The notes below the pieces were generated by a model, which made no database searches, had not been told where the DNA came from, and was given only the letters and a program-made list of their open reading frames with translations. The position numbers and the translations under genes are program-made. 27,605 nucleotides of DNA, taken from positions 1-27,605 of the forward strand of contig DASQRT010000324.1 of assembly GCA_035642795.1 (NCBI GenBank), in the 5' to 3' direction. Source of the DNA: Nitrospirales bacterium. GTDB lineage: Bacteria; Nitrospirota; Nitrospiria; Nitrospirales; NS-4. Shown here in pieces: positions 2,738 to 9,321 of the stretch; within the stretch, counting starts at the first letter, position 1, and each line of letters opens with the position of its first letter.

Positions 2738-3292
2738 ATGAATGCGGGCGGGATGGCGGCGTCGGACTACCAACTATTGGACCGCTACGCGACCGGCGAC
2801 GAGTCGGCCTTCGAGGAGCTGGTCACGCGCCATCAGAAGACCGTCTATGACCTGGCGTACCGAATGCTGGGGAACCATGCCGACGCGGCCGACTTGGCGC
2901 AGAAGACGTTCGTACAAGCCTTCCTCCATCATCGGTCCTTCAAGCGCGAGTCCAGCTTTCGGACCTGGCTCTATCAGATCTGCCTTAACCAATGCCGCAA
3001 CGCGCTCCGTGATCGGGCCCGGCTGGCGCATGAGGATGTGGACGAGCTGGCGCTTGCGGCCCCGCAGGATACCTTTGCGGAGGCCGCCAAGTCCGAGCTA
3101 CGGGACCGTCTGGGGCAGGCGATCCGGACCCTGCCGGCGAGACAGCGGGAGGCTCTGGTGCTGCGCGTGTATCACAACCATGCCTTCGCGGATATCGGGG
3201 TGATCATGAGCTGTTCCGAAGGGACCGCGAAGGCCAATTACCATCATGCGGTGGACAAACTCCGCCGTGTCCTGATGGCGGGTGAGGGATGA
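2738..3292 (+). CDS. ECF RNA polymerase sigma factor (sigma-24 family)
   Basis: Region 2 (DLAQKTFVQAF, SFRTWLYQICLNQCRN) and region 4 (LPARQREALVLR...SEGTAKANYHHA); alternative start at Met 2753. Confidence 0.95.
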   Translation: MNAGGMAASDYQLLDRYATGDESAFEELVTRHQKTVYDLAYRMLGNHADAADLAQKTFVQAFLHHRSFKRESSFRTWLYQICLNQCRNALRDRARLAHEDVDELALAAPQDTFAEAAKSELRDRLGQAIRTLPARQREALVLRVYHNHAFADIGVIMSCSEGTAKANYHHAVDKLRRVLMAGEG

Positions 3293-3816
3293 ACATGACC
3301 TGCAATGAGATCAAGGAATTGACCGTACCGTACCTGGAACTGGACTTGGAGCCGCCCCGCGTCCGGGACGTCACTACCCACCTGAACGGGTGCGCTGGCT
3401 GTCGTGCCGAGATGGAAGCGGTCCGCCAGGTCCTCGTCCGAGTGAAGGGGATGGCGGTGCCGGACCCGGGCGACCGATTTTGGACGGAATTCCCGGAAAA
3501 AGTTCGCCGTGGACTGGCCCGCGAAAGGCCAACTGGCCGCTCTGTTGGGAACGCAACCTGGATGCCAAGGTGGCCGCTGGCCCTCGCGGCGTCGCTGTTG
3601 CTCGTCGTCGGCGCCTGGTCCCTGAAAGGCCTGCTCGATAGAGGACTAGTGCCGCCCGGGCAATCCGTGACGCAGGGTACTATCACTGCGGACCTGCCGA
3701 GCCTCGGCGATGCGGACTGGGAGGCATACTGGGAGGATGATCCCGACACGGTCCTGGTCGAGATGGCGACGCAACTGGATCGCCAGACCATGGACCGGTT
3801 GCTTGCGGATATTTGA
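3289..3816 (+). CDS. Zinc-binding anti-sigma factor (zf-HC2/ZAS) with one TM helix
   Basis: ATGA overlap with the sigma gene; HLNGCAGC (HxxxCxxC); TM WPLALAASLLLVVGAWSL; short acidic C-terminal tail. Confidence 0.85.
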   Translation: MNMTCNEIKELTVPYLELDLEPPRVRDVTTHLNGCAGCRAEMEAVRQVLVRVKGMAVPDPGDRFWTEFPEKVRRGLARERPTGRSVGNATWMPRWPLALAASLLLVVGAWSLKGLLDRGLVPPGQSVTQGTITADLPSLGDADWEAYWEDDPDTVLVEMATQLDRQTMDRLLADI

Positions 3817-3830
3817 AAGAAAGGAGCGTT

Positions 3831-4478
3831 ATGTACCCGATCACGCGTACAATCCAGGCCGTCTTTACCGTCGCGTTGGTAGGAGTTCTGGTCTCACCCT
3901 CCGGGGCCCAGGAGACGGGCAGACCGGGCGGTCCGTCCTCGACTCCACCGGTGATGCAAGAACCCGAGCGCATGACGCCGCCGGAGCGCGGCGGCAAGGA
4001 CATGGAGGAACGCATCCGGCACTTCGAAGCCAAGAGGAGGGAGAAACTGCTGCAGGCCTTGCAACTGGACGAGGCCACCCGTACCAGGCTTACCCAGCGA
4101 CTTGAGCAACTGGACCAGAAAGCGCAAGACTTGCGCCGCCAGCGGCAGGAAGCCGTGCAAGCCTTGCGTGAGCAAGCCAAGGGGCTGCGCAAGGAGATAC
4201 GGCGAGGGCAGCGCAACGGCGGTGGGCGCGGCCCGGAGGGGACTCCGCCTGCGGGAGGCAGCCCGGCCGATAACAGCTCCTTGCGGCAGACGTTAGAACG
4301 AGTCTATGCGGTGGAGGACGCCATGACGGGCTTGCGGCGGGAACGCCTGCAGGTAGCGCGCGACTTGCTGACGCCCGAGCAGCAAGTCAAGTTCCTCCTT
4401 TTCACCGTTAGGTTTCAGAAGGAGATGCATGAACGGCTGCTGCGGGAACAAGGTGGACAGGAAGGCGGGCGGCGGTAA
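3831..4478 (+). CDS. Secreted helical protein, Spy/CpxP/periplasmic heavy-metal-sensor-like
   Basis: SD AAGGAG before ATG 3831; signal peptide ending SPSGA-QE; coiled-coil body; C-terminal LLTPEQQVKF (LTxxQ motif). Confidence 0.7.
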   Translation: MYPITRTIQAVFTVALVGVLVSPSGAQETGRPGGPSSTPPVMQEPERMTPPERGGKDMEERIRHFEAKRREKLLQALQLDEATRTRLTQRLEQLDQKAQDLRRQRQEAVQALREQAKGLRKEIRRGQRNGGGRGPEGTPPAGGSPADNSSLRQTLERVYAVEDAMTGLRRERLQVARDLLTPEQQVKFLLFTVRFQKEMHERLLREQGGQEGGRR

Positions 4479-4506
4479 ACCTCGTTTGACCACTCTTCTT
4501 CGGTTT

Positions 4507-4515
4507 TGATACGCT
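4507..4515 (+). promoter_or_regulatory. Extended -10 element directly before the YHS gene start (leaderless candidate)
   Basis: TG-a-TACGCT then 6 nt then ATG 4522; no SD. Confidence 0.5.
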
Positions 4516-4521
4516 TCCGTC

Positions 4522-4791
4522 ATGTTATGGCGTTTCATCGTCCTCGGGGTCCTGCTCGTCATCGTATATTTCATGGTGAAGAGCGCCCTGCGGGGTCTTT
4601 TCGGCAAGGGCCAGGACGTGACGCGATCCGTGGGGACGTCGGGCAAGCCTTCCGAGATGGTCCAGGATCCGGTCTGCGGGATGTTTATACCGAGGGAAGG
4701 AGCGTACTTCCTCGAACAGGGCAGGCAGACGGTCTTCTTTTGCAGCGAGACCTGCCGCGCCAGCTACCAGAAGAAGCTCAGCTCCGCGTAA
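4522..4791 (+). CDS. Membrane-anchored YHS/TRASH domain protein
   Basis: N-terminal TM helix; DPVCGM...FFCSETC metal-binding motif. Confidence 0.85.
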   Translation: MLWRFIVLGVLLVIVYFMVKSALRGLFGKGQDVTRSVGTSGKPSEMVQDPVCGMFIPREGAYFLEQGRQTVFFCSETCRASYQKKLSSA

Positions 4792-4792
4792 G

Positions 4793-5101
4793 TCAGCAGC
4801 CCGACGAGTAGCTGTAGTCGTCCAGCTTGCCTTCCTTGTCGAACTTCAACGTGATCTCACACTCGTGGGGATTGATCCCGCCCAGGATGCGTTGCGTGCC
4901 GCCGGCGATCCTGTAGTAGGTCCAGCTTTCGCCACCGAAAAAGCGTTTGGACGTACCGGAGGGCTTGCCCCACTCCTTCTCGAACCATTCCTTCGACTCG
5001 TGCCGCTGGGCCGCCGGTTTGAGGGACTGTTCCAGGTAGGGATTGCTGGCGCATCCGGCGAACAGCAACAGACTCACCAAAACGATTACCGACCGAGACA
5101 T
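4793..5101 (-). CDS. Small lipoprotein, possibly SmpA/OmlA (BamE)-like fold
   Basis: Lipobox LFAG-C; WGKPS...WTYY...ITLKFDKEGKLDDY pattern; GGGG SD-like element before ATG. Confidence 0.78.
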   Translation of the reverse strand: MSRSVIVLVSLLLFAGCASNPYLEQSLKPAAQRHESKEWFEKEWGKPSGTSKRFFGGESWTYYRIAGGTQRILGGINPHECEITLKFDKEGKLDDYSYSSGC

Positions 5102-5124
5102 ATGGACCCCCTTGGTTCAGGACG

Positions 5125-5133
5125 AAGCTAGCA
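5125..5133 (-). promoter_or_regulatory. Extended -10 element for the lipoprotein gene
   Basis: Minus strand TG-c-TAGCTT about 24 nt upstream of ATG 5101. Confidence 0.4.
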
Positions 5134-5143
5134 TGGTTCTTGT

Positions 5144-5172
5144 TTGCAAAGCCCGAGGTGTTCTCCTAGAAT
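5144..5172 (+). promoter_or_regulatory. sigma70 promoter of the tal-mla operon
   Basis: TTGCAA-N17-TAGAAT; SD GGAGG near 5211. Confidence 0.7.
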
Positions 5173-5221
5173 ACCATACAAGTCCCGCGCAAACCCGGTT
5201 CCCTTCACCCGGAGGTTCCCT

Positions 5222-5875
5222 ATGATGATCTTTTTGGATACCGGCAACACGAAAGAGATTAAGGAAGCGGCCAGCTGGGGCATCCTGGACGGCGTGACCA
5301 CCAATCCATCGCTGGTGGCCAAGGAAGGACGCAGCTTTAAGGACCTCCTCCAGGAAGTCTGCTCGATCGTGGACGGCCCGATCAGCGCCGAGGTCGTCAG
5401 CGTCGAAGCCGACGCGATGATCAAAGAGGGCAAGGACCTTGCCAAGATCCATAAGAACATCGTGGTCAAGGTCCCGCTGATCCCAGAAGGCTTGAAGGCC
5501 TGTAAGGCACTGGCCTCCGAGGGAATCAAGGTCAACGTCACCCTCTGCTTCTCGCCGAACCAAGCCCTGCTGGCCGCCAAGGCCGGCGCTTGGTGCGTCA
5601 GTCCCTTCATCGGCCGGCTGGACGACATCAGCGAGGATGGGATGGGGCTCATCCGAGACATCGTGACCATCTACCGGAACTACCACTTCAAGACGAAGGT
5701 GCTGGTGGCCAGCGTGCGGCATCCCCGGCACGTGGTCGAGGCCGCCAAGATTGGAGGCGACATCTGCACCATGCCGTTCGCCGTCTTCAAGCAACTCGTC
5801 CAGCATCCACTGACCGACGTCGGCTTGAAGAAATTCCTGGCGGACTGGGAGAAGCAGAATGTCCCGAGAGGGTAA
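5222..5875 (+). CDS. tal: Transaldolase (short Tal/Fsa family)
   Basis: FLDT, GVTTNPS, catalytic Lys in [14 protein letters not shown]; SAEV (Glu) and SPFIGR (Phe) indicate transaldolase rather than FSA. Confidence 0.95.
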
Positions 5876-5893
5876 GCCCTCTCCGCGCCCGGT

Positions 5894-6673
5894 GTGATTG
5901 CCTGGACCGGCAGGAAGACGGTCGAGGGCCTCGAGTTCGCGGCGGCGGTCCTCGACCTTGGTCTGCGTGCCTTCCGAGAGCTCTTCTCGCCCGCGCGGCG
6001 CGGACGTGGCGAGGTCTTCCGGGTCGTCACCCGCCAGATCCTGTTCACCGGAGTCGACGCGCTTCCGGTCGTTGGGGCGATCGCGTTGATGCTGGGCCTC
6101 ATCATCATCATCCAGGCCGGGACCACGCTGCCACAGGTTGGGGCGGGCGCCTTTCTGGCCAAGATCATCGAGCTGACGGTGGTTCACGAGCTGGGCCCGC
6201 TCCTCACGGCCTTCATCGTGATCTGGCGGTCGGGGACCGCCATCTGCACGGAGTTGGGCAACATGCAGGTCGGCCAGGAGATCGCCGCGCTCGATGCGAT
6301 GGGGATCAGCCTGATCCGCTTTCTGGTGATGCCGCGCGTGGCCGGGGTGATCGTGGCCATGGTCTGCTTGACGATCTACTTCGATCTCATCGCAATCGTG
6401 GGCGGTTTCCTGGTAGCCAAGATCCACCTCACCATTCCCATCCAGGTCTACCTGGCGGAGATCGAGGAAGTGCTCTCGGCCTCGGACATCTTGATCACCG
6501 TCATCAAGAGCGTCCTGTTTGGATTCACCATCGCCGTCATCTGCTGCCATCACGGGCTTTCCGTCGTGGGCGCCACCACCGAGGTGCCCCAGCAGACGAC
6601 GTGGGCGATGCTCAACACGGTCACGGCCTGCCTGGTCCTCGACATCATCGTGTCAGTCGGGTTTTACCTCTGA
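5894..6673 (+). CDS. mlaE: MlaE-family ABC permease of an Mce transport system
   Basis: RQILFTGVDALP, ELGPLLTAFIV, ELGNMQVGQEIAALDAMGIS...PRV motifs; GTG start uncertain (no SD). Confidence 0.92.
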   Translation: MIAWTGRKTVEGLEFAAAVLDLGLRAFRELFSPARRGRGEVFRVVTRQILFTGVDALPVVGAIALMLGLIIIIQAGTTLPQVGAGAFLAKIIELTVVHELGPLLTAFIVIWRSGTAICTELGNMQVGQEIAALDAMGISLIRFLVMPRVAGVIVAMVCLTIYFDLIAIVGGFLVAKIHLTIPIQVYLAEIEEVLSASDILITVIKSVLFGFTIAVICCHHGLSVVGATTEVPQQTTWAMLNTVTACLVLDIIVSVGFYL

Positions 6674-6675
6674 CC

Positions 6676-7410
6676 ATGTCGGAGGCGGTGATCACATTGG
6701 ACCGCGTCTCGGCGAGCGAAAGGGATCAGACGCTCGTCGAGGACATCAGCTTCACCGTGCACCGGGGCGAGGCCGTCGCCCTGGTGGGGTCCAATGCGTC
6801 CGGCAAGGGCCTCGTGCTCAGGCTCTGCGCTGGATTGGAGGCGCCCGCGTCAGGGACGGTACGGGTGCTGGGCGCGGATCCGGCCCGCGCGACGGAGGAG
6901 CAGCTCTTGGCGCTGCGCCAGCGGGTGGGGTTCGTCTTCGCCAAACCCGCGCTGATCAGCAACATGACCGTCTTCAACAACGTCGCGCTCCCGCTTCGCT
7001 ATCACACTGTTTTTCCGGAGACCGAGATCCGGGAGCGGGTGCTGGCACGCCTGACGGAATGTGGCGTGGACGCTTTTCGCGACCGGATGCCGGCCGACCT
7101 GATGTTGGGGGATGCGCGCCAGGCGGCGCTCGCGCGGGCCATGGTGATGGACCCGGACATTCTGTGCGTGGACGAGGTGCTGCTCGGGTTGGACGCCGAT
7201 GAACTCGTCCGGCTCCGGAAGATCCTGGAGCGGTACCGAAGGGCGGGCCGGCCGACGATCGTCGCCACTGTCAATGCGCCCACCAGTCTGTTACGCGCGA
7301 TGGACCGCCTGATCCTGCTCCAGGACGGTCGCCTTGTGGCCGCCTGTCCGCCGGCCGAGGCTCCGCTGTTGGATGATCCGATGGTGCAAGTTTTTTTTGG
7401 ATCCCAGTAA
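6676..7410 (+). CDS. MlaF-like ABC ATP-binding protein with degenerate catalytic motifs
   Basis: Real start ATG 6676, 2 nt after the mlaE stop; ABC fold recognisable (GSNASGKG, RQRVGFVF, NVALPL, ILCVDE..GLD). Confidence 0.9.
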   Translation: MSEAVITLDRVSASERDQTLVEDISFTVHRGEAVALVGSNASGKGLVLRLCAGLEAPASGTVRVLGADPARATEEQLLALRQRVGFVFAKPALISNMTVFNNVALPLRYHTVFPETEIRERVLARLTECGVDAFRDRMPADLMLGDARQAALARAMVMDPDILCVDEVLLGLDADELVRLRKILERYRRAGRPTIVATVNAPTSLLRAMDRLILLQDGRLVAACPPAEAPLLDDPMVQVFFGSQ

Positions 7411-7423
7411 AGGAGAAACAGCC

Positions 7424-8401
7424 ATGCACTACTCGCACCGCCTGTCGCAGACCCGTCTCCACCAAATCGTCGGATGGTTTGTGCTGGTGCCGATCCTCGT
7501 CCTCGTCGGCGTTCTGGTGCTGGTGGCCCAAAGCGAAAACCTGTTTGAAGAGAAGTACCACATCACTACGGTGTTCAGTGAAGGCTACGGCTTGAAGCCC
7601 GGCAAACAGGTGATGCTCTTGGGAATTCAGATCGGCGAGGTCACCAAGATCGAGGTTACCGAGCAGAACGACGCCAGGGTGACCATGGAGATTCTCAAGA
7701 AGTACCGGGACAAGATCCGGCAGAACTCGGTCGCCAAGATCGGTAAATCCGGCGGTCTCGTAGGCGAGCCGCAGATCGAGATCACCGTGGGCCATAGGAG
7801 CAGGCCCGTGGTCGCGGATGGCGGCCACATCGAGTCGGAAGAGCCCTTCAACATCGCGGATGTGATCGCCGAGGTCAAGCCCCTCGTGGAGACTTTCAAG
7901 AAGACGCTGGTCCGGGTCGAGGAGATCACGGAGGATGTGCGGGCGACGGTGCAGACCGGCCACGAGGCGCTCAATCATGTGCGGGAAGCTTCGACGCTGC
8001 TGCCGGCCATTTTGCAGAACGTCAAGGAGACCACGGCGGCGGTCCGCGAGGCCACGCTCTCTACCACTGAACAGCTCCCCGCCATTGCGGCCAGCGTCCG
8101 CGCCAGCGTAGATCGTGCCGCAGACGCGATGCGGGATGTGAAGGTGGCAACCGGCAAACTTCCGGGGATGGTGGACTCGTTGCAGGGCGCTGTGGACAAC
8201 GTGAAGGCCGTCACGGAGGACATCCCGCCCCTCCTGCGGTCGGTGGAGGGGACGCTGGAGGACGTGGACGAGATCGTGACGGGGGCGAAACAGACCTTCC
8301 CGATCAGCACTTTCGCAGCCAAGGGACGAGCAGCCCGTGCGGAAGAACGGGCCGTTCCTGTCCCGAGGAGCCTGCGCCGCGACGACCTGGTCAGGGAATG
8401 A
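7424..8401 (+). CDS. mlaD: MlaD/MCE-domain protein with long helical C-terminal extension
   Basis: SD AGGAG; N-terminal TM; GLKPGKQVMLLGIQIGEV MCE motif; GGLVGEPQIEI; amphipathic repeats afterwards. Confidence 0.9.
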   Translation: MHYSHRLSQTRLHQIVGWFVLVPILVLVGVLVLVAQSENLFEEKYHITTVFSEGYGLKPGKQVMLLGIQIGEVTKIEVTEQNDARVTMEILKKYRDKIRQNSVAKIGKSGGLVGEPQIEITVGHRSRPVVADGGHIESEEPFNIADVIAEVKPLVETFKKTLVRVEEITEDVRATVQTGHEALNHVREASTLLPAILQNVKETTAAVREATLSTTEQLPAIAASVRASVDRAADAMRDVKVATGKLPGMVDSLQGAVDNVKAVTEDIPPLLRSVEGTLEDVDEIVTGAKQTFPISTFAAKGRAARAEERAVPVPRSLRRDDLVRE

Positions 8402-9321
8402 CCATCGCCCGCCTCAGCATCCTGCTGTTGGTGCTCGTGGCCGGAGGCTGCTTTGGCGGGGCCGCCGGGCCTGAACGCCCTCCGTTAGCTGCCCAGGAAC
8501 AGGACTTCCGTGACAAGGGACACCGCGCGCTGTCGCGTGGCGACGTCGCGCGGGCTGGCCTGTTCTTCGACGAGGCGCGCCGCCTGGCTGAGAGCATCGA
8601 CGACCGATCGGGGCTCGTCGGCGCGCTGAACGACCTGGGCGCGGTCGCCGGTCTCCAGGGCGACCCTGGCAAGGCCGCCGAATTCCATCGTCAGGCACAC
8701 GGGATCGCGCTGGAACTGGGCGATCGGGTGCTCATCGCCGACAGTCTGAGCTACCGAGGGCAGGCGTCGCACCTGCTGGGCGATCACGCCGCCGCCCTCG
8801 CCTTCTATACTCAGGCGCTGGCTCTCGCCCGGGTGGTCAACGATCGCCGGGGGGAGGCTGCCGTCCTGAACAACCTGGGCCTGCTCCAGCAGGCGAAAGG
8901 CGAGACGGACCAGGCGGAGCAGAGCTTCCAGCGGGCGCTCGCGCTTAACACCGAGGTGGGCGAACGGCGAGCTATGGCCAGCAATCTGAGCAATCTCGGC
9001 GCCTTGTCGGAGAAACGCGGCCGCTGGGCAGAGGCGCGCAGTCTCTACGAGCAGGCGCTCGCCCTCGACAAGGAGACAGAACAGCGGCCCGCGATTGAGG
9101 CCGACCTTGTGAATCTGGGACAGCTCTCCGAGGTGGAACACCGGCTGGAGGAAGCGATCGGCTACTATGACCGGGCCTACCGGGGCTACCGCGTGCTCAA
9201 TCAGGTACCGAAGGCCGTCGACGTGTTGACCCGCCTGATCCGGGTCGTCAAGGCGGCCGGCCAGGAATCCCTTGCCGCCACCTACCAGGCTGAGTTGAAC
9301 ACGCTGACCACGAAACCGTAA
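8398..9321 (+). CDS. Tetratricopeptide-repeat lipoprotein
   Basis: ATGA overlap with mlaD; lipobox VAGG-C; repeated ALNDLG, VLNNLG, NLSNLG, DLVNLG TPR helices. Confidence 0.88.
   Translation: MTIARLSILLLVLVAGGCFGGAAGPERPPLAAQEQDFRDKGHRALSRGDVARAGLFFDEARRLAESIDDRSGLVGALNDLGAVAGLQGDPGKAAEFHRQAHGIALELGDRVLIADSLSYRGQASHLLGDHAAALAFYTQALALARVVNDRRGEAAVLNNLGLLQQAKGETDQAEQSFQRALALNTEVGERRAMASNLSNLGALSEKRGRWAEARSLYEQALALDKETEQRPAIEADLVNLGQLSEVEHRLEEAIGYYDRAYRGYRVLNQVPKAVDVLTRLIRVVKAAGQESLAATYQAELNTLTTKP

Follow-up and report, generated by a model that had tools for sequence, protein, structure and literature searches.

An Mla-type cassette with a degenerate nucleotide-binding domain

The stretch of DNA analysed here, called the window below, is an entire 27.6-kb contig (C324; 27,605 nucleotides) of a metagenome-assembled genome (MAG) of a soil bacterium of the Nitrospirales (G000; 1.89 Mb, 62% GC, 93% complete). 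Its + strand carries four closely spaced genes encoding an MlaE permease, an ATP-binding cassette (ABC) domain, an MlaD/MCE protein and a tetratricopeptide repeat (TPR) protein (Table 1). The second of these genes, which is the subject of this work, encodes a degenerate MlaF-like nucleotide-binding domain (NBD) that we refer to as the pseudo-NBD. An initial annotation of the window, made from the sequence alone, had described an MlaF-like open reading frame (ORF) with no internal stops and with most catalytic motifs lost, and inspection of the ORF together with the HMMER and paralogue alignments presented below bore out this description.

The pseudo-NBD gene starts with an ATG 2 nucleotides past the mlaE stop codon, stays open throughout and ends with a TAA at 7408-7410. 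The ATG of mlaD, at 7424, lies 13 nucleotides past this stop and is preceded by AGGAG 9 nucleotides upstream. The long MlaD protein is composed of an N-terminal transmembrane helix, an MCE domain and a helical C-terminal region of about 170 residues, and the TPR protein begins with a lipoprotein-like signal peptide ending in LVAGGC.

The GC content of the pseudo-NBD ORF at the three codon positions was 0.71/0.45/0.83, a typical coding pattern in a genome of 62% GC. The same frame is free of stop codons from position 5506, 1.17 kb 5' of the ATG, crossing mlaE in another frame, and reads as an ORF of 606 residues at 5590-7410. This long upstream-open frame is an artefact of GC-rich DNA. It misled a simple gene caller into a call at 6850-7290 on the - strand, which we overruled on the basis of codon-position GC and homology.

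Table 1. Genes of the cassette and motifs of the pseudo-NBD in the window (residue numbers are those of the pseudo-NBD).
Feature	Position	Strand	Basis or remark
MlaE-type permease, 259 aa, cassette gene 1	5894..6673	+	Pfam PF02405, 209 bits; stop TGA 6671-6673
Degenerate MlaF-like NBD (pseudo-NBD), 244 aa	6676..7410	+	PF00005, 82.7 bits; NF008809, 119 bits
Walker A remnant G38-S-N-A-S-G43-K44-G45 (GSNASGKG)	6787..6810	+	Gly replaces the Mg-binding Ser/Thr of GxxGxGK[ST]; Lys kept
Q-loop position, Ala89 for Gln	6940..6942	+	HMMER alignment with 7d06
Block N102-VALPLRY-H110, predicted groove for the MlaE coupling helix	6979..7005	+	Little or no variation among 118 members
Degenerate signature L142-M-L-G145-D146 (canonical LSGGM/Q)	7099..7113	+	Alignments with 7d06 and the paralogues
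Walker B ILCV-D166-E167, then Val168 for Pro; intact D-loop G171-L-D173	7159..7194	+	Alignments
Switch (H-loop) position V199-N200, no His	7270..7275	+	His column is V199 (HMMER, 7d06) or N200 (MAFFT)
Long MlaD/MCE protein, 325 aa	7424..8401	+	PF02470, 60.9 bits; TIGR00996, 80.8 bits
TPR protein (probable lipoprotein), 307 aa, last cassette gene	8398..9321	+	TPR_12, 99 bits; start overlaps the mlaD stop

The ATP site of the pseudo-NBD

Motifs were read from a HMMER alignment to Acinetobacter baumannii MlaF (7d06, E value 2.7e-33) and by aligning the protein with three canonical MlaF paralogues that the window genome encodes. Of the seven elements that make up a canonical ATP site, five were lost. 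The A-loop aromatic residue was absent, and so were the Walker A Ser/Thr, the Q-loop Gln, the LSGGQ/M signature and the switch His that characterize a catalytic ABC ATPase, whose Walker B hhhhDE motif with the D-loop was present. The lost elements are required by Escherichia coli MlaF. Structural work on that protein made use of an E170Q trap mutant (entry 7cgn).

The degeneracies of Walker A, Q-loop and signature were as the initial annotation had described them, and the remaining motifs called for some correction. A missing Pro had been assigned to the D-loop; the Pro is indeed absent, but its place is directly after Walker B, and the D-loop is intact. The switch His had been reported as replaced by Asn, and there is no His, although the position itself is ambiguous between Val199 and Asn200 depending on the alignment; in the MAFFT column of Asn200 a His occurs in six distant family members, and any His nearby was found in just 7 of 118. 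Walker B Asp-Glu had been taken for the only intact motif; the P-loop Gly and Lys residues and the D-loop are intact as well. The lesions fall on both faces of the ATP sandwich, and the earlier view of a pseudo-ATPase whose homodimer would have two dead sites is supported.

The pseudo-NBD nevertheless belongs to the ABC NBD fold. It exceeded the Pfam ABC_tran threshold (cut-off of 25 bits) with a score that is low for a genuine NBD, its AlphaFold2 model reached a pLDDT of 93, and Foldseek aligned it with MlaF chains at TM-scores of 0.84-0.91, the best match being the MlaF of 6xbd (TM-score 0.90, root-mean-square deviation 2.0 Å). Against the MlaF equivalog model NF008809 it scored 119.3 bits for a cut-off of 441, compared with 182-214 bits for the canonical paralogues of the same genome; this cut-off is missed by every Nitrospirales paralogue too (best 214 bits), so the score carries little weight alone. 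The source annotations call such proteins 'phospholipid/cholesterol/gamma-HCH transport system ATP-binding protein', 'ABC-type transporter Mla ... ATPase subunit MlaF' or 'ATP-binding cassette domain-containing protein', names which probably overstate their function.

Orthologues and selective constraint

Of 20 further genomes from the same Nitrospirales family, 18 had one orthologue each, in the same mlaE-NBD-mlaD order and at identities from 93% down to 51%; mlaD was syntenic in all orthologous loci. All 18 are degenerate in signature, switch, Q-loop and the Pro after Walker B. The initial annotation had held that canonical motifs in the orthologues would mean recent decay in this genome only, and the shared degeneracy points instead to an old state. 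Outside the family, more distant matches (38-46% identity) in two other families of the order keep GKS and the Q-loop Gln, have lost the signature and the His, and carry DD for DE. In total, 329 related proteins were retrieved at E values of 1e-20 or below, and the few that are named by source are all Nitrospirae/Nitrospirales MAG records.

Ratios of non-synonymous to synonymous substitution rates (dN/dS) were calculated by the Nei-Gojobori method and are given as medians. The check on purifying selection that the initial annotation had proposed returned a value of about 0.25, like those of the adjacent genes: 0.26 for the NBD, 0.21 for MlaE and 0.23 for MlaD at the same loci. Across nine shared genomes, the pseudo-NBD gave 0.24 versus 0.095 for a canonical MlaF (the type encoded on contig C108 of the window genome). 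These values therefore indicate that the gene is maintained, under a constraint similar to that of its operon partners and about 2.5-fold less than that of a working MlaF.

That the gene might be a decaying or misannotated ORF without function could be suspected from its low Pfam and NCBIfam scores and from the frame open from 5506, which could hint at a chance ORF in GC-rich DNA. We find this explanation hardly credible, given a dN/dS equal to that of the neighbours, full-length orthologues of 242-247 residues across the family and beyond, a confident fold, coding-type codon-position GC and a conserved gene order.

In the course of this comparison, the synonymous divergence (dS) between the window genome and its genus-mates was about 0.7-0.95 at the canonical MlaF gene of C108 (C108:17195-17995) versus about 0.10-0.14 at the NBD gene of the window, and among three of the genus-mates (G003, G005 and G006) it was 0.15-0.23 at the canonical MlaF locus. 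Contig C108 may stem from a different population within the bin, or transfer may have replaced it, and a mixed bin is a possibility for this MAG.

Conservation pattern and predicted docking on MlaE

Column conservation was computed over 118 family members. The catalytic columns scored 0.31 (Q-loop Gln), 0.36 (signature Ser), 0.33 (first signature Gly), 0.37 (switch), 0.46 (A-loop) and 0.61 (Walker A Ser/Thr). The Q-loop column is among the least conserved of the family (Ala in 36, Gln in 26, Val in 22 and Asp in 21 members), and Walker A position 45 is Gly in 72 and Ser in 41. Gly38 is conserved in 100% of the members, Gly43 and Lys44 in 97%, Asp166 in 90%, the second signature Gly (Gly145) in 99% and Asp173 of the D-loop in 98%; the columns of the P-loop Gly, Gly and Lys, of Asp166 and of Asp173 score at least 0.90. 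Glu167 of Walker B is conserved in 69% and is otherwise Asp (34 of 118). At signature position 5, residue 146 (7111-7113) is Asp or Glu in 105 of the 118 members and adjoins Gly145 and Arg148. An acidic residue, apparently newly fixed where the γ-phosphate would sit, has the look of an acquired constraint and not of mere decay.

Residual, non-canonical catalysis would require that a slow ATPase activity, relying on Lys44, Asp166, Glu167 and substitute residues, be enough for transport. These three residues are present in the window protein, and Asp166 is among the well-conserved positions; the catalytic Glu, however, is replaced as described above and is absent from 25 of 55 cassettes of the kind described below. 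The Gln, the His, the signature Ser and first Gly and the Mg-binding Ser/Thr are lost, in columns that are among the least conserved, and the lost positions show no conserved alternative residue apart from acidic residue 146. We consider this explanation very improbable.

A two-chain model of MlaE with the pseudo-NBD scored 0.79, compared with 0.00 for the best of three controls. Of 80 solved complexes 58 attain the mark applied, as do 2 of 110 mismatched pairs. Different runs coincided in at least 96% of the contacts, and the pLDDT of the partner was 82 or higher. The modelled interface places the MlaE coupling helix (residues 120-143) against NBD residues 81-96, 105-110 and 151-158, with NBD residues 105-110 contacting MlaE 136-138. 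The complex model supports docking of the pseudo-NBD on MlaE. The 24 NBD residues predicted to contact MlaE had a mean conservation of 0.79 (0.64 elsewhere), a mean reached by 12 of 10,000 random residue sets, and the MlaE-docking groove is the best-conserved surface of the pseudo-NBD. Column conservation and conserved contact residues therefore indicate that selection preserves the fold, the docking on MlaE, the P-loop, the D-loop and the Walker B Asp, and not catalysis.

The retained P-loop raises the alternative that the pseudo-NBD is a nucleotide sensor or gate, which would bind ATP or ADP through the P-loop without hydrolysis, so that closure of the dimer or the ATP/ADP state of the cell would gate the MlaE portal. 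Stable ATP binding is known from the degenerate sites of CFTR or SUR. The near fixation of the P-loop Gly and Lys residues, Asp166 and Asp173 in columns next to drifting catalytic ones fits such a role, as do the GKS kept in many orthologues, joined by the Q-loop Gln in the more distant tier, and the acidic residue at signature position 5, an apparent new constraint. The loss of the A-loop aromatic residue and the Gly in place of the Mg-binding Ser/Thr in most members speak against it; the Walker A Lys is moreover replaced in 8 of 55 cassettes, so nucleotide binding is no general requirement of the cassette, and the Lys-Asp pair may serve fold stability alone. On balance we regard a sensor or gate as unlikely, while giving it serious consideration.

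Canonical MlaF paralogues and the source of a motor

The initial annotation had asked for a search for canonical mlaF paralogues in the genome, and three were found: one in an mlaE-F-D-C locus on contig C108, one in an mlaE-F-long mlaD locus on C71 and one at the start of contig C53. A canonical MlaF from elsewhere might replace the pseudo-NBD on MlaE or pair with it in an asymmetric heterodimer, supplying the hydrolysis as MceG does for several mycobacterial Mce systems. MceG is a precedent for an ATPase encoded apart from the permease genes. Besides the mere presence of three paralogues, the C53-type copy, which stands without an MlaE neighbour, could in principle be such a free ATPase. This copy (G000 C53:1-714, L048; L146:1369-2205; L145:1396-2088) is fully canonical and 65-67% identical to the MlaF of C71. 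In the genus-mates G003 and G005 it has no adjacent MlaE or MlaD, with the same arrangement in both; its neighbours are a soluble protein without Pfam family on the 5' side and a VTT/DedA-rhodanese membrane protein on the 3' side. The DedA family has been implicated in lipid flipping.

Several observations make a borrowed motor or a heterodimer improbable. The pseudo-NBD is degenerate on the P-loop side and on the signature side, so no heterodimer partner would give a consensus site, and the cassette contains no second NBD gene. The conserved MlaE-docking surface argues that the pseudo-NBD itself occupies the site on MlaE, and its gene is tightly set between mlaE and mlaD. The orphan C53-type copy was found in three genomes of one genus only, whereas the cassette spans phyla. 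The relative G038 (one contig, 99% complete) encodes three MlaE proteins and two canonical MlaF proteins; the genes of the latter each adjoin an mlaE of their own, which leaves only the pseudo-NBD for the third MlaE, and no unpaired MlaF was found in this genome. In the distant relative G023 (98% complete) no MlaF-like protein above the generic ABC level was found except for a degenerate NBD beside the sole MlaE.

We used G023 solely for the point that it has no MlaF to borrow. Its locus (L143, G023:C1:314500-322500; genes 4378-5127 and 5124-5948 on the - strand) holds MlaE and the degenerate NBD between recG and a DUF423 gene, and the NBD reads GREESGKEV, LSGYH and IDD, with no His. We had considered G023 as a case of the full cassette without canonical MlaF and rejected it, since only MlaE and the NBD are present, without an adjacent MlaD or TPR gene, and orthology is uncertain (an organism of 43% GC, with an NBD 38% identical).

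Four mechanisms had been offered in the initial annotation. Borrowing of an ATPase and the asymmetric heterodimer now look unlikely, and operation without ATP hydrolysis and a nucleotide-sensing or scaffold role remain live.

Distribution of the cassette across phyla

A pattern scan with one genome per species recovered 248 relatives with the NVALPLRYH block, 80 of which were examined with 4-kb flanks. The cassette of MlaE, NBD, long MlaD and TPR protein was found in MAGs of Nitrospirota (including Nitrospira), Nitrospinota, Desulfobacterales/'Deltaproteobacteria', Planctomycetota and Spirochaetota. None of the 55 TPR-linked NBDs keeps the first signature Gly. The other motifs persist unevenly: the Walker A Lys in 47, the Ser/Thr in 39, the Gln in 40, the catalytic Glu in 30 and the His in 9. 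In a quick maximum-likelihood tree, all TPR-linked NBDs fell into one clade of 54 rows (SH-aLRT 97), which includes 15 rows without a TPR match and lies apart from canonical MlaFs, the paralogues of the window genome included.

In the eight NBDs without it, the Walker A Lys is replaced by Arg, Thr, Leu, Gln or Ser; they belong to some Nitrospiraceae, Planctomycetota and unclassified MAGs. Motifs such as SGRGL, CGSAT, SGTST, SGLTS and NGQTL occur in other lineages of the cassette clade, among loci L061, L062, L064, L068, L073, L101, L104, L105 and L108, whose NBD genes lie at about 4001-4750 of the respective locus. In L104, LSGGQ is kept and the Lys and the His are lost.

The absence of the first signature Gly from all TPR-linked NBDs, together with the patchwork of other losses, suggests that hydrolysis became dispensable early and that the remaining motifs then decayed independently by lineage, different lineages having apparently taken different routes to the same dead state. 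The family of the window is the most degenerate end of this series.

The NVALPLRYH block itself was rejected as a marker of degeneracy, since eight loci that carry it are fully canonical and have no TPR or long-MlaD neighbour (L110, L114-L116, L122, L123, L127 and L128). An exhaustive search of representative genomes was likewise given up: two-domain ABC proteins, with two hits summed, dominated it, about 24 single-domain matches were usable and little was gained.

Among 55 TPR homologues from five phyla, most have a signal peptide followed by Cys (39 by regular expression, most of the others by eye). The TPR protein of the cassette is therefore probably, judging from its sequence, a lipoprotein, in the place held by the PqiC-like lipoproteins of the Mpc and PA3211-PA3214 systems, and it gave no PqiC-like Pfam match.

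Genes upstream of the cassette

On the 5' side of the cassette, positions 2738-5875 encode an ECF sigma factor, a zf-HC2 anti-sigma factor, three small ORFs without known family and a transaldolase. Synteny of these genes extends family-wide and not beyond. For this reason they were discarded, along with PilZ and UDG genes, as additional members of the cassette, being conserved within the family only and not across phyla. The transaldolase gene ends 18 nucleotides before mlaE, and the two may possibly be co-transcribed.

A non-catalytic subunit on an MCE lipid portal

Taken together, we think it probable that the pseudo-NBD is a folded, MlaF-descended domain that docks on MlaE and is unable to hydrolyse ATP. 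Selection keeps the fold and the docking surface as the catalytic positions drift, which argues against ATP hydrolysis by its own NBDs as the driving force of the transporter. In the mechanism that we propose, an envelope system of four parts would consist of MlaE, a long MCE protein of the needle type, a TPR lipoprotein and the pseudo-NBD, the last being its resident subunit in the cytoplasm, with presumably two copies for each MlaE dimer. From the cytoplasmic side, two pseudo-NBDs would grip the MlaE dimer as a scaffold without catalytic activity and keep MlaE in a portal conformation. MlaE would then be a static or ligand-gated portal feeding a hexameric MCE needle, which would reach the TPR lipoprotein, and lipid would move through the MCE tunnel down its own gradient without ATP hydrolysis by the pseudo-NBD. 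Nucleotide binding without hydrolysis may gate the system.

Some points weigh against this interpretation. Deviant ABC proteins sometimes retain slow hydrolysis, and this one still has its Walker A Lys and its Walker B Asp-Glu. That the P-loop Gly and Lys residues and the D-loop barely vary in this family suggests a continuing need for a nucleotide or phosphate ligand, and a purely passive scaffold may be too simple. The complex model may have passed because of its likeness to solved MlaFE complexes. The window genome has canonical MlaFs, one of a type without adjacent MlaE in two genus-mates, and borrowing may be possible for this genus. Every genome concerned is a MAG. Evidence of expression is weak: contigs about 90-95% identical from two soil RNA libraries jointly cover the cassette, one of them (968 nucleotides) spanning 6739-7706 and thus most of the pseudo-NBD gene, but such contigs may be DNA carry-over and show neither strand nor level, and we did not count them as transcription.

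With middling confidence we extend the proposal to a wide subfamily of MlaE/MCE systems, in which the ABC motor would have become a non-catalytic subunit of a passive or nucleotide-gated lipid portal whose flux is not driven by ATP. For Mla it is debated whether and how ATP drives lipid movement by MCE systems, and in which direction. The cassette appears to be a natural experiment in which an MlaE/MCE machine kept its NBD for docking or assembly and discarded catalysis in many lineages. It offers a handle on what the NBD contributes besides energy and raises the question of passive MCE tunnels; the genus Nitrospira, which has cultured members, is among the lineages that carry it. If the proposal is true, the architecture of an ABC transporter is used here as a passive or nucleotide-gated lipid portal between membranes. 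Our searches of open-access papers turned up neither a degenerate MlaF nor an Mla cassette that includes a TPR lipoprotein.

Comparison with known systems

The closest match to the pseudo-NBD is MlaF of the phospholipid transporter MlaFEDB (E. coli 6xbd and 6xgy, A. baumannii 7d06 and 6z5u, Pseudomonas aeruginosa 7ch8), at about 30% identity. As in that system, the NBD gene follows mlaE and precedes mlaD, in the window and in all orthologous loci, and the same docking on the coupling helix is predicted. MlaF's C-terminal extension forms the dimer 'handshake' and binds MlaB. The pseudo-NBD lacks this extension, ending at about residue 247-249 of the 273-residue chain of 7d06. The partners differ as well, with a long MlaD and a TPR lipoprotein in the cassette and neither MlaB nor MlaC; a search for a STAS gene, which covered the cassette and not the whole genome, found none.

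Brucella abortus MpcEFDA (PMC12436622) and P. aeruginosa PA3211-PA3214 (PMC13631591) follow the same operon logic of permease, NBD, MCE protein and, as last gene, a lipoprotein. In both, the MCE protein is about 310-330 residues long with a helical needle, and the final product is an outer-membrane lipoprotein (PMC12436622, PMC13631591). The domains and lengths of MlaE, NBD and MlaD in the window fit this type, with the helical C-terminal region of MlaD as a putative needle. The lipoprotein of those systems is PqiC-like and octameric, whereas that of the window cassette is a TPR protein, and MpcE has an N-terminal STAS domain of which none was seen in the MlaE of the window. MpcF and PA3212 are treated as ATPases (PMC12436622, PMC13631591).

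In mycobacterial Mce systems, the YrbE proteins are MlaE-type permeases that work with MCE needle proteins, and chain G of the Mce1 structure 8fed matches the pseudo-NBD with a TM-score of 0.89. The mycobacterial operons lack an NBD gene and share a catalytically canonical MceG; the operon of the window has its NBD gene, and that NBD is degenerate at the ATP site.

ABC proteins with one degenerate site, such as TM287/288, TAP1/2, CFTR and MsRv1273c/72c, carry a non-consensus catalytic Glu, switch His or signature, and binding without hydrolysis is possible at such sites (PMC7756269, PMC12038006). In the known asymmetric heterodimers, the lesions are split between two NBDs and one consensus site is left (PMC7756269). 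The window differs in having a single NBD gene with lesions on both faces, whose homodimer would contain no consensus site.

PqiAB and LetAB are MCE tunnel or needle systems without an ABC ATPase (PMC12436622, PMC13017536, PMC10897342). PqiA and LetA are unrelated to MlaE and, unlike the permease of the window cassette, have no NBD-like subunit; PqiAB(C) ends in an outer-membrane lipoprotein, as the window cassette appears to do. Both systems must work without an ABC motor, and they show that lipid traffic through MCE proteins need not be driven by ATP.

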